From a virus (Duplodnaviria; Caudoviricetes), in the IMG/VR virus record IMGVR_UViG_3300031608_000040, positions 1-25,752 of that record: a DNA stretch of 25,752 nt, one strand, 5' to 3'. A model generated the notes under the pieces. The model was not told the origin of the DNA. It made no database searches and worked only from the letters and a program-made list of their open reading frames with translations. Shown here one piece after another: positions 1,057 through 4,015 of the stretch (the first letter of the stretch is position 1; every line of letters begins with the position of its first letter). The translations under genes and the position numbers were made by a program.

Positions 1057-1283
1057 TGCAAGTATTAAACGAGTCTTATACGATGCAAGAACAAATGATT
1101 AAAGCATGTCGTATGCATGCTGAAGGTGATCTAGAAAGAGCTAAAACTAATTTTATGGTTTATTTAAATAATCCTGTTGGCATTGGTGAACACAGCGATA
1201 TTGTAGAGGCTATGCAAAAAGAGCTTAGCACTATGGGTCATGCAAGTGAACGTCTTGAAATGTTAAGTAAGCATTTTGAATGA
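1056..1283 (+). CDS. small hypothetical protein of a type recalled from marine T4-like phages
   Basis: GGGGAG RBS; motif HAEG...VYLNNPVGIGEHSDIVEA. Confidence 0.75.
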   Translation: MQVLNESYTMQEQMIKACRMHAEGDLERAKTNFMVYLNNPVGIGEHSDIVEAMQKELSTMGHASERLEMLSKHFE

Positions 1284-1969
1284 AATATTTTATTGCTGCT
1301 CCATTTGGAAATTATATAAAACTATCAAATGCGATTAGCGTAACTGGAAGTTGGACTTATCAGAATCGTCCAGGACTATTTCCTCAGATCTTAAAAACAC
1401 TTCGTTATACTAAAGATGGATGGCGAAATAAAATAGGTCTGAGGAATGCTGGAATAAAAGAAGGATTAAAAAGATCTGGTCCTAATGATGTTTTAAGTTT
1501 AGCTGCGATAGATCATTGGGATTGGGTCAACATGGAAAGTGTTGTTCCAAGTACGACTTCTTTAGAAATTAATATTAGTTGTCCCAATTTGGATAAAGAT
1601 GTTGGAGCAGCTAGCTTACCAGGATTTAAATTCTGGCCAGTTGGTAAGCGAGAATGGTGTATTTGTAAAGTTCCTCCGACAGCGACAGAAAGTCTTATTG
1701 ATCAGATAGTTGACTTTGGATATAGTCAAATTCATGCTAGTAACACTTTATATTCTATTCATGGGGGACAGAGTGGAAAATTACTAATACCATACACAAA
1801 CCGAATTATTGAATACATCAAAACAAAATATCCTCATGTAACAATTATTGCTGGTGGTGGTGTGACTACAAAAAAAGATGCTGAAAATTATTTTAAACAC
1901 GGCGCTGATTATGTAAGTCTTGGATCAGTGTGTTTTACACCATGGAAAATAAAAAATATTTTAACTTAA
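1280..1969 (+). CDS. pyrD: dihydroorotate dehydrogenase-like FMN TIM-barrel (class 1, short)
   Basis: EINISCPN (catalytic Cys loop), KVPP, SNT, GGQSG, IIAGGGV, GADYVSLGS motifs. Confidence 0.8.
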   Translation: MKYFIAAPFGNYIKLSNAISVTGSWTYQNRPGLFPQILKTLRYTKDGWRNKIGLRNAGIKEGLKRSGPNDVLSLAAIDHWDWVNMESVVPSTTSLEINISCPNLDKDVGAASLPGFKFWPVGKREWCICKVPPTATESLIDQIVDFGYSQIHASNTLYSIHGGQSGKLLIPYTNRIIEYIKTKYPHVTIIAGGGVTTKKDAENYFKHGADYVSLGSVCFTPWKIKNILT

Positions 1970-1986: not shown

Positions 1987-1994
1987 TATAAATA
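1987..1994 (+). promoter_or_regulatory. T4-type late promoter TATAAATA
   Basis: Exact consensus in the intergenic gap 37 nt before the AsnRS-like gene; gp33 is present in the window. Confidence 0.75.
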
Positions 1995-2031: not shown

Positions 2032-2856
2032 GTGACACAATTGATTGATCCACAAAAATTTACAAAAGCCGTTGACCTTTTAAGGTCATTTTTTTTAAAC
2101 AGAGGCTTTCATGAAGTACATACACAAAACCGTTTAAGCATTTTAGCAGCGTGCGAAGATCCAGAAAACGTTGCAACATATAACTATGAAGGTCAAGTTT
2201 GGCCTCTTCCGCAGACTGGTCAGATGTGGTTGGAATATGAATTATTAACTCGCCCCTCTTCGAAGGGGTTTTTTTGTATCTCAACTTCTTACAGACAAGA
2301 ACCGAATGCAATTCCAGGCAGACATGACACGATTTTCCCGATGTTTGAATTCGAAATGCCAGGAGATATTAATGATCTCAGAGTAATGGAAAGGCAATTG
2401 TGTGCCCATCTAGGATTCGATGATTTAACAGAAAAAACATACAGAGAGTGGCAACAACATTATGGCTTAAGTGCTACAACTGAATTAGATGCACAGCATG
2501 AACTAGCTATGCAAGCTGGTTTTAATAGCTGTATGATTACAGACTTTCCAGAATTCACAAGTCCATTTTGGAATATGGCAAGAAATGAAGATGGCACGAG
2601 TAAGAAAATTGATGTTATTCTTGGAGGTATGGAAACAATTGGTAGTGCAGAACGTAGCACTGATAAAGACCAAATGCGTGACACATTCCATACAATTTCA
2701 GATGGTGAATATGCTGGCTTGATTAGTAGCCTATTCGGAAAAGATAGAGTAGAAGCTGAATTAGAAAAATTCTTAGAGTTTGATTTCTTTCCAAGAGTTG
2801 GAGGAGGAATTGGTATGACGCGCATGATTAGTGCGCTGGATACTCTTAAGAAATAA
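2032..2856 (+). CDS. class IIb aaRS (Asn/Asp/Lys family) catalytic domain only, no N-terminal anticodon-binding OB fold
   Basis: Motif 1 LRSFFLNRGFHEVHT, LPQTGQMWLE, motif 2 SYRQEP..GRH..FPMFEFE, ETIGSAER, motif 3 GGGIGMTRM; GAGAGG RBS, GTG start; 274 aa. Confidence 0.88.
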   Translation: MTQLIDPQKFTKAVDLLRSFFLNRGFHEVHTQNRLSILAACEDPENVATYNYEGQVWPLPQTGQMWLEYELLTRPSSKGFFCISTSYRQEPNAIPGRHDTIFPMFEFEMPGDINDLRVMERQLCAHLGFDDLTEKTYREWQQHYGLSATTELDAQHELAMQAGFNSCMITDFPEFTSPFWNMARNEDGTSKKIDVILGGMETIGSAERSTDKDQMRDTFHTISDGEYAGLISSLFGKDRVEAELEKFLEFDFFPRVGGGIGMTRMISALDTLKK

Positions 2857-2862
2857 GAATAA

Positions 2863-2971
2863 TCCGAGGTGGTGGAATGGTAGACACGCCGTACTGTTTA
2901 TACGGTGAATCAAATATACCCGCAAAAGTATATTTATATTCGTGAAGGTTCGAATCCTTCCCTCGGAGCCA
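2863..2971 (+). tRNA. non-canonical tRNA-Asn(GUU), 109 nt, with 38-nt variable arm
   Basis: TCCGAGG/CCTCGGA acceptor, G73, CCA; anticodon stem CCGTA/TACGG with loop CTGTTTA; T-arm GAAGG-TTCGAAT-CCTTC; variable region 2906-2943. Confidence 0.9.
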
Positions 2972-3247: not shown

Positions 3248-4015
3248 ATGGCACAACCAATAAATCAATTAAGCTTTAAAGCCAGAAGCCTCTTGTTTGC
3301 TCAACTATCAGCAATTGCGTACTCCGATCTTAAAGAAGCTAAGACCGCAGCACGAAGACTTGAATTCACTACAGTTGAATTTTATGATGTCAATGGCGCA
3401 CAGGCATACAGATTTATGAATAAGTATGATTGTATTATCACATGCAGAGGAACTCAGCCAACTGAGTTTAACGATATTAAAGCTGATTTGCAATCAATTC
3501 CAGTAATGGCAGAAACAGTATCAAGAGTTCATAAAGGGTTTAAGGCCGAGGTCGATGAACTTTGGCCAGCTATATGTGAAGATCTAGATAGAAAGCAAAA
3601 TAACAAAAAAACACTTTGGTTTTGCGGACATTCTCTCGGTGCTGGTATGGCAACAATCATGTCGTCACGATGCTTACATAATATATTTTTAAAAAATCCG
3701 GTTGAATTGTATACGTTCGGTTCTCCTCGTGTAGGCTTTAAGAAATACTGCAAATCTCTTGGAGTAATTCATCACCGTTTCGTAAATAATAACGATGTTG
3801 TCACTCGCGTGCCCTTAGTAATGATGGGTTATAGACATCACGGAACAGAACATTATATGGATTCCAATGGAGAATTCACAAATGTGTCTGGGATAAAAAG
3901 ATTTTGGGATAGATTAAAAGGCATGGCTGCCGGTATTATGAAATTAAAAATAGATAATTTTAGTGATCATAGTATGGATTGTTACATAGAGAATATAAAA
4001 AATATGAAAGAATAG
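3248..4015 (+). CDS. class 3 lipase (alpha/beta hydrolase)
   Basis: CRGT oxyanion motif, GHSLG nucleophile elbow, YTFGSPRVG, NNNDVVTRVP, C-terminal DH(SM). Confidence 0.92.
   Translation: MAQPINQLSFKARSLLFAQLSAIAYSDLKEAKTAARRLEFTTVEFYDVNGAQAYRFMNKYDCIITCRGTQPTEFNDIKADLQSIPVMAETVSRVHKGFKAEVDELWPAICEDLDRKQNNKKTLWFCGHSLGAGMATIMSSRCLHNIFLKNPVELYTFGSPRVGFKKYCKSLGVIHHRFVNNNDVVTRVPLVMMGYRHHGTEHYMDSNGEFTNVSGIKRFWDRLKGMAAGIMKLKIDNFSDHSMDCYIENIKNMKE

Follow-up and report, generated by a model that had tools for sequence, protein, structure and literature searches.

Identity of the Long-arm tRNA

The locus raises the question of what role could be played by a tRNA that combines the anticodon of asparagine with the body of a leucine tRNA and a uridine at position 37. 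The window, i.e. the whole analyzed stretch of 25,752 nucleotides, is a fragment of a T4-like phage with genes for gp32, the baseplate, and the tail. Its plus strand carries a gene of 109 nt at 2863..2971, which was assigned as a long-variable-arm tRNA-Asn(GUU) from the sequence, the Rfam model, and covariation. The acceptor stem TCCGAGG/CCTCGGA (2863-2869/2961-2967) starts with the pair U1-A72 and is followed by a D arm with A15 and an extra base 20a (2872-2887) and by the anticodon arm (2889-2905), whose loop CUGUUUA (CTGTTTA in the DNA, 2894..2900) contains GUU at 2896-2898 and U37 at 2899. The variable arm of 38 nt (2906..2943) forms a stem-loop with a covarying base and an invariant UAUUUA in its 3′ strand; folding predicted an 8-bp inner stem and an 8-nt loop (z = −2.23, with 3 of 200 shuffles equally good). 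The T arm (2944-2960), the discriminator G73 (2968), and the CCA end (2969-2971) complete the molecule. A 21-nt stretch of the D arm is identical to that of the tRNA-Leu in the window, apart from a single additional A on the Leu side. Thus the description given in the initial annotation, with a D arm one base off tRNA-Leu, a 38-nt variable region with an 8-nt loop, and the loop CUGUUUA, was confirmed on the sequence in full. The tRNA-Leu(UAA) at 263-348 and a CAU tRNA at 354-429 are of ordinary build.

Neither ARAGORN nor an Rfam scan of the whole window called 2863-2971, as might be expected if the tRNA were in decay, the fold had arisen by chance, or the assembly were at fault. Applied to the interval itself, the Rfam tRNA model RF00005 gave a score of 48.8 bits (E 1.3e-9), where the gathering score is 29. 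The acceptor, D, anticodon, and T stems are all intact, and the CCA end is present. Covariation was analyzed in 40 long-arm genes (38 from viral loci, the window gene, and L084). In this alignment 96.8% of cells were paired, 17 of 29 pairs had two-sided changes, and none of 500 shuffles scored as high. All four tRNA stems showed two-sided changes, and the base of the variable arm had 4 and 16 of them at two pairs. Because every stem covaries, the tRNA is not decaying, as the initial annotation had held. In its four closest relatives the gene is 110 nt long and likewise of the long-arm type, not an ordinary 76-nt tRNA-Asn, approximately 700 matching stretches in IMG/VR were estimated from a pattern search, and the gene is present in cultured phages. 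Decay or artefact, refuted by the covariation, can therefore be dismissed almost entirely. A blastn search of the tRNA against cultured phages returned 29-nt T-arm matches only, and a scan for sigma-70 promoters and terminators gave no signal at the tRNA. In RNA libraries, three runs contained 5-10% of the words, and contigs extended over 2806-2973 and 2876-2973 with one mismatch each; these matches show no transcription, ends, strand, or charging.

Three canonical traits of tRNA-Asn, namely GUU, G73, and U1-A72, are all present, whereas the short variable loop, the standard D loop, and A37 are replaced by the 38-nt arm, base 20a, and U37. With bacterial tRNA-Leu the molecule shares the D arm, A15:U48, G18G19, the A20a hinge, and the long arm, but it has G73 in place of A73 and U35 in place of A35, and the LeuRS determinants are therefore absent. 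U1-A72, G73, CCA, and A15:U48 were invariant in 55 of 55 distinct genes linked to the enzyme described below, including the window gene, which upholds the earlier assignment of an Asn identity on a Leu-type body; the GUU anticodon was itself a selection criterion of the tRNA parse. According to PMC9976931, G73 on a Leu-type body can turn Leu identity to Ser in some contexts. A host SerRS might accordingly charge the long-arm G73 tRNA with serine, and the tRNA would then misread Asn codons or serve to deliver serine. With the Leu-type A15:U48 core in 55 of 55 genes, U1-A72 fixed, and an AsnRS-type pocket in the partner enzyme, we consider this very improbable.

An intron or insertion in the arm was ruled out, since arms of 12-39 nt all form paired stems. 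If the chimera proposed initially is taken as a recent Leu/Asn recombinant within the window, the proposal fails: the whole family has the Leu-type body, which is also frequent where the enzyme is absent. A scan of metagenomes, restricted to A37-A38 and with ∼0.3-1.2 kb of DNA fetched per side, yielded 119 loci (L303-L421) with 84 distinct long-arm tRNA-Asn genes, of which 80 had no enzyme in the DNA fetched. Given these 80 genes, tRNAs that combine GUU with a Leu-type body are widespread in tRNA arrays and not unique to the lineage of the window. No description of the enzyme-less class was found in the open papers searched. A few of its members have G1-C72 and A73.

Linkage of the tRNA to an AsnRS-like Enzyme

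Directly upstream, and ending 6 nt before the tRNA, a gene on the plus strand (2032..2856) encodes a protein of 274 amino acids (phrog_29758) with PF00152 as its only domain, an AsnRS-derived class II catalytic core that is predicted to form dihydroorotate. Among the best 80 of 597 confirmed viral loci, a whole tRNA was found behind this gene in 76 (73 parsed and 3 identified by eye); the gap was ≤30 nt for 70 of the parsed tRNAs and 161 nt for 3. One of the remaining four loci is cut by a contig end, and L005, L007, and L018 had no tRNA in the DNA fetched. The genes adjoining the pair vary among the viral loci. In a reverse scan by tRNA pattern, comprising 120 loci that overlap partly with the viral-locus set, the enzyme lay directly upstream in 97; 10 loci were too short to judge, 6 were chance non-tRNA matches, and 7 were long-arm GUU tRNAs without enzyme. 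None of the counts given here and below is phylogenetically independent. The enzyme tree (thinned to 125 tips and rooted with the most divergent fusion) placed the tRNA-linked enzymes in one clade amid bacterial and fused forms (FastTree support 0.94; 92 tips, 9 of them without a parsed tRNA).

The same pair is carried by the cultured phages P-SSM2 and P-SSM7, where it is annotated as a 'tRNA ligase' and a tRNA-Asn. In PMC3037559, a 'tRNA ligase' (T4-GC 194) is listed for two cyanophages out of 16. In P-SSM2 the tRNA-Asn was located directly behind the enzyme (L161:3314-3402), and the feature in AY939844.2 lies ∼2 kb downstream within a CDS. A class 3 lipase gene follows the pair both in the window (3248-4015) and in P-SSM2 (L161:3435-4049). 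Seven phage-like contigs with the pair in bacterial or archaeal bins (L081-L085, L097, and L122) are likely mis-binned.

The origin of the enzyme was traced by profile, fold, and motif comparison. A profile of 89 relatives matched the AsnRS and AspRS catalytic domains best (E 5e-11 to AsnRS), and its alignment with three genomic AsnRS sequences had a probability of 97%. The first Foldseek match of the AlphaFold model (pLDDT 93) was the AsnRS of Pyrococcus horikoshii (E 2e-17, TM 0.79). The aligned motifs were QTGQMWLE, RHDTIFPMFEFE, and ETIGSAER in the enzyme and QSGQLYIE, RHLIEFWMMDAE, and EIIGGSQR in AsnRS; AspRS-like comparators with an asnS score under the cut-off had QSPQFYKQ at the first site. 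Both alignment and fold gave motifs 1-3 and an AsnRS-type amino acid pocket, and the ATP-binding residues of motifs 2 and 3 were invariant in the family, as were family-specific residues including R34, W66, P103, and R255. Judged by motif alignment and fold match, the core is therefore AsnRS-derived and keeps the ATP-binding arginines. It has no anticodon-binding domain: the N-terminal OB-fold is absent from the 274-residue protein, and none is listed in 15 longer homologs. The asnS model gave 21 bits against a cut-off of 342.6, a phmmer search of the PDB with the single protein found no match, and the ESM Atlas returned 'tRNA ligase' clusters only. Seven residues separate the viral from the bacterial enzymes, none of them clearly a tRNA contact. 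One homolog, P0133, has a long, homing-endonuclease-like N-terminal region (PF22945), and the rest of its cluster is 297 or 614 amino acids long.

The Enzyme Family and Pyrimidine Synthesis

Dihydroorotate corresponds to asparagine plus one carbonyl that bridges the α-amine and the side-chain amide. On the basis of gene context and genome comparisons, we regard it as quite likely that the enzyme forms dihydroorotate from asparagine and CO2 or bicarbonate. It would then stand alone in place of CarAB, PyrB, and PyrC.

In the window, the gene directly upstream of the enzyme (1280..1969, plus strand) encodes a divergent dihydroorotate dehydrogenase of 229 residues, a PyrD-like protein that would be the next enzyme of the pathway and whose clade also adjoins the enzyme in Rickettsiales operons. 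This 229-residue clade is common to marine phages and Rickettsiales operons. In phage G189, pyrD-like and PRTase genes lie within 9 kb of the enzyme. The pyrD-like gene of the window had strong matches in 4 and weak matches in 2 more of 50 mostly fragmentary phage records, and a pyrE-like gene was found in 6 of the 50. In a set of 50,697 phage records, three named cultured cyanophages have the enzyme, namely P-SSM2, P-SSM5, and P-SSM7, and these are also the ones with a P-SSM2-type pyrE; pyrE in P-SSM2 is reported in PMC1079782.

Of 80 loci from genomes, seven with a tRNA look like phage contigs in bins and two more are phage-like; the other 71 are bacterial (55-61% identity). No GUU tRNA was found within 3 kb of the bacterial copies, and a private tRNA is therefore not required by the enzyme family. 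A tRNA-Asn pattern search in the carrier genomes gave mostly chance matches and two ordinary short genes (L287 and L294), and a stricter pattern matched none. Several of the bacterial copies belong to pyrimidine operons. Those of Rickettsiales have the orders paralog-pyrD-pyrE-pyrF (L428) and paralog-pyrF-pyrE-pyrD-prs-tkt (L429), and in Bacteroidota the paralog lies beside pyrD and UMP synthase. The 15 longer homologs included nine with a DHODH domain and one with an OMP decarboxylase. In CPR bacteria the paralog was found between a Dus (PF01207) gene and dnaX at L088, L090, L095, L098, and 12 more loci. tRNA-Gln genes near CPR copies, 0.1-2.8 kb away and mostly past dnaX, were read as ordinary synteny.

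Profiles were obtained for 50 of the 71 carrier genomes (20 non-CPR or unassigned and 30 CPR on long contigs). Scores over the cut-off were found for pyrB in 1, DHODH in 30, pyrF in 27, and asnS in 11 genomes. All nine Bacteroidota carriers had pyrD and pyrF, and none had pyrB. In five carriers checked, carB was over the cut-off in one and pyrC in none, with two sub-threshold amidohydrolase matches; gatB was missing in 2 of 10 carriers checked. Two groups served as controls. The family of G015 comprised 121 genomes, 112 of them with pyrB, and the three carriers, two of them known beforehand, were all among the nine genomes without it. In the order of G016 (Rickettsiales, 81 genomes), carriers accounted for 0 of 64 genomes with pyrB, 3 of 4 with pyrF and no pyrB, and 0 of 13 with neither. 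The enzyme is thus complementary with pyrB where later pyr genes are kept, and it occurs in pyr operons and fusions. Exceptions occur among CPR genomes. Of the 50 carriers, 23 have no pyrF, including G001 and G003, two closed chromosomes from which pyrD is missing as well, so that some CPR copies have no visible downstream pyrimidine pathway.

These data bear on a second reading of the pair, in which the enzyme is a minimal AsnRS that does not read the anticodon and would recognize its own tRNA-Asn for charging by the acceptor stem and the variable arm, as a natural orthogonal pair for phage translation. The tight linkage, the AsnRS-type pocket and ATP motifs, the P. horikoshii AsnRS as top fold match, and the carriers G001 and G003 without pyrD and pyrF would all suit such a synthetase. 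Operons, fusions, and pyrB complementarity nevertheless link the family, including the tRNA-linked cyanophage members and the pyrD-like gene of the window, to pyrimidine synthesis. An arm that varies between 12 and 39 nt, with repeated switches on the protein tree, would make a poor recognition handle, and a purine would be expected at position 37 of a decoding tRNA. Translation by an orthogonal pair is therefore considered improbable. If it were true, a natural anticodon-blind synthetase/tRNA pair would be useful for genetic code expansion.

A Possible Asparagine Carrier

We instead favor a real Asn-identity long-arm tRNA that likely does not decode and would act as an asparagine carrier for the predicted dihydroorotate-forming enzyme; to this model as a whole we assign an even chance. 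A non-ribosomal role had been raised initially from U37. It is kept here as the best reading, but on a different basis, because the tRNA has an obligate upstream AsnRS-like enzyme, which the initial annotation had missed, and because that enzyme has links to pyrimidine synthesis. In its full form the proposal is a tRNA-dependent entry to de novo pyrimidine synthesis, where the enzyme would cyclise Asn from Asn-tRNA with CO2, taking over from three almost universal enzymes, and a dedicated, non-decoding marine-phage tRNA would route host aspartate and nitrogen into the pathway by transamidation. This fuller version is tentative, slightly short of an even chance.

The phage may have taken a long-arm tRNA-Asn from the pool in phage tRNA arrays. 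We infer that this happened in one phage lineage, in which the signals for charging were retained and those for decoding were relaxed; with U37 the t6A site would be gone and the tRNA barred from decoding, while the charging signals stay fixed. To our knowledge, Prochlorococcus and SAR11 have no AsnRS, and the marine hosts of this phage type presumably make asparagine only via tRNA. In such hosts, ND-AspRS, which reads GUU and G73, and GatCAB, which reads U1-A72, would load the phage tRNA, which would then supply its asparagine to the enzyme. A carbamate on the α-amine could close onto the activated α-carboxyl (adenylate or tRNA ester) to give an N-carboxyanhydride, and the ring could then be closed by the side-chain amide. 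Chemical precedents for such steps are the carbamate adenylation by TsaC, the CO2-driven anhydride formation from aminoacyl adenylates, and the base cyclisation of N-alkoxycarbonyl-asparagine. The indirect tRNA route is the sole asparagine source in many bacteria, as stated in PMC2330236. Since the phage enzyme lacks a domain with which to read the anticodon, the fixed GUU and G73 are compatible with a host synthetase; U1-A72 fits GatCAB according to the tRNA identity determinants in PMC9976931. Together the fixed GUU, G73, and U1-A72 suggest aminoacylation.

Several observations point the other way. PMC2330236 describes a supernumerary D-loop base as a GatCAB antideterminant, and the extra D-loop base 20a therefore argues against efficient use by GatCAB. 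A37 is kept in 10 of 77 enzyme-linked genes, and the three loci L005, L007, and L018 have no tRNA. AsnRS in 11 of 50 carriers and the missing gatB in 2 of 10 indicate that free asparagine could be the substrate, and the invariant ATP motifs 2 and 3 would fit its activation. The enzyme might accordingly make dihydroorotate from free Asn and ATP with no tRNA, while a nuclease-resistant translation tRNA rides on the same late transcript. The intact ATP site, the absence of an adjacent tRNA-Asn in bacterial carriers, and enzyme-less long-arm tRNA-Asn genes that appear translation-competent all speak for this alternative, which we consider rather unlikely on the evidence of linkage and of position 37. 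It leaves unexplained why 70 of the 80 loci retain a gap of ≤30 nt in spite of changing neighbor genes.

Nucleotides at Position 37

In the reverse scan, position 37 was U in 65, A in 10, and C in 2 of 77 distinct enzyme-linked genes; the 55 distinct genes of the viral-locus parse had 40 U, 12 A, and 3 C. The seven long-arm GUU tRNAs without enzyme (L201, L206, L217, L220, L226, L227, and L235; six distinct) all had A37 and lay among other tRNAs. A pyrimidine was thus present in 67 of 77 enzyme-linked genes versus 0 of 6 distinct enzyme-less genes (p 2e-5, kinship uncorrected). Five records of enzyme-less tRNAs, one of them 92% complete, were searched, and neither a relative of the enzyme nor PF00152 was found. 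U33 was lost in 2 of 61 enzyme-linked genes. U1-A72 was stricter beside the enzyme (77 of 77 versus 64 of 80 without it), where G73 was also present in 77 of 77.

The preference for U looks like selection, and evasion of host anticodon nucleases, which the initial annotation had also raised, may be one way to account for it. In PMC10264068, loop mutations of phage tRNAs are proposed to evade nucleases, and according to PMC13191261, t6A37 aids PrrC cleavage of tRNA-Lys; both would suit a nuclease-resistant translation tRNA beside an enzyme that uses free asparagine. However, the other tRNAs within the viral loci kept a purine at position 37 in 34 of 34 cases, and that reading leaves unexplained why a pyrimidine occurs solely beside the enzyme and why U33 was lost twice.

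Avoidance of EF-Tu via the T stem was also considered. A51-U63 lent it no support (62 of 77 enzyme-linked versus 56 of 80 enzyme-less genes, p 0.14), and no clear signature emerged, G50.U64 alone being enriched beside the enzyme (21 of 77 versus 5 of 80). A second odd long-arm type in these phages was seen at L045 and L053, a UAU-anticodon tRNA with a 24-nt variable arm, the loop CTTATAC, and A73.

Comparison with Known Systems

De novo pyrimidine synthesis is taught as beginning with CarAB, PyrB, and PyrC. The phage enzyme would share the predicted product of this route, which is then passed to PyrD, PyrE, and PyrF, but it is a single unrelated protein with a predicted start from Asn and CO2 rather than from carbamoyl phosphate and aspartate. 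Metabolic paralogs of aminoacyl-tRNA synthetases with a repurposed catalytic core are known, namely AsnA and EpmA. Like the phage enzyme, archaeal asparagine synthetase A/AsnRS2 (PDB 3P8T) consists of the catalytic core only; it is repurposed for metabolism, as is predicted for the phage enzyme. Its sequence match is weak (E 0.0084, versus 5e-11 to AsnRS), it is not among the top fold matches listed, and the gene context of the phage enzyme is pyrimidine synthesis. The class IIb domain of AsnRS itself (PDB 1X54, 2XGT/2XTI, 9SH8, and 8H53) shares fold, motifs 1-3, and pocket with the enzyme, which differs in having no anticodon-binding domain, in an identity of only ∼19%, and in being fused to or beside pyr enzymes.

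Bacterial tRNA-Asn has GUU, G73, and U1-A72 in common with the phage tRNA (determinants as in PMC9976931 and PMC2330236). The phage class has an arm of 12-39 instead of 5 nt, a Leu-type 3-bp D stem with 20a, and mostly U37 instead of A37. Closest are the long-arm tRNA-Asn genes of tRNA arrays, the likely source pool, with the same Leu-type body, A15:U48, and mostly G73 and U1-A72; they differ by A37, by arms of 11-21 nt, and by lying among other tRNAs with no enzyme found nearby.

Aminoacyl-tRNAs are used outside the ribosome in tetrapyrrole synthesis, which draws on Glu-tRNA, and staphylococci have a non-proteinogenic tRNA-Gly with relaxed decoding features. We know of no case in nucleotide synthesis, nor of one with a dedicated phage-borne pair. 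In searches of open PubMed Central and bioRxiv text, no description was found of the tRNA class, the pair, or a pyrimidine role of the paralog. The tRNA is conserved and belongs to an uncharacterised enzyme-tRNA module, which probably forms a new entry route to pyrimidines. If so, a one-enzyme bypass derived from an aminoacyl-tRNA synthetase would close the gap in the pathway of some Rickettsiales, Bacteroidota, and CPR bacteria. In abundant marine phages, among them the cultured P-SSM2 and P-SSM7, whose annotation of the gene reads 'tRNA ligase' and no more, the bypass would be an auxiliary metabolic function that has gone unrecognised. The dedicated tRNA would be a new case in nucleotide metabolism, tying the translation machinery to nucleobase synthesis.

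Variable Arm and Late-promoter Motif

The variable arm contains, on the minus strand at 2931..2938, the T4 late-promoter motif TATAAATA, as defined in PMC3037559 and of putative function here. The same motif lies on the plus strand at 1987..1994, 37 nt before the enzyme gene. Of six full copies of TATAAATA in the window, four are just before genes, one is within a coding region, and one is that in the arm. A TAAATA core lies at most 120 nt upstream in 53 of the 56 loci with a long arm and in 8 of the 16 with a short arm. TATTTA, which read antisense is the T4 late-promoter core, was present on the 3′ strand in all 29 distinct long arms of one set and in 31 of 35 of the reverse-scan set. In the 40-gene alignment, five pairs at TATTTA varied by one-sided A/G wobbles, of which there were 34, without any two-sided change; the arm base, in contrast, covaried fully. 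The motif was absent from the short-arm versions (42 of 42) and is therefore not essential. An antisense late promoter in the variable arm is possible, with recognition at the RNA level as an alternative.

An invariant strand that is antisense to the late-promoter core, with a partner strand that varies by A/G wobble only, might also be expected if the RNA stayed uncharged and acted on the enzyme or its transcript as a cofactor or regulator, i.e. as a bound scaffold, as a 3′ element for processing or stabilisation, or by carrying an antisense late promoter. The absence of the motif from all 42 short arms and the fixed GUU, G73, and U1-A72 make such a role quite improbable.

Arm lengths of the enzyme-linked tRNAs ranged from 12 to 39 nt. 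Arm class changed 13 times among 83 tips of the protein tree, compared with 27.6 times after shuffling; long arms are intermixed with short ones, with more clustering than expected by chance, and a binding of arm class to one protein clade was ruled out. At L001 (tRNA at 3832-3941), the enzyme is 98.5% identical to that of the window and the tRNA differs in anticodon stem and arm; the tRNA may have been exchanged by recombination or may be fast-evolving.
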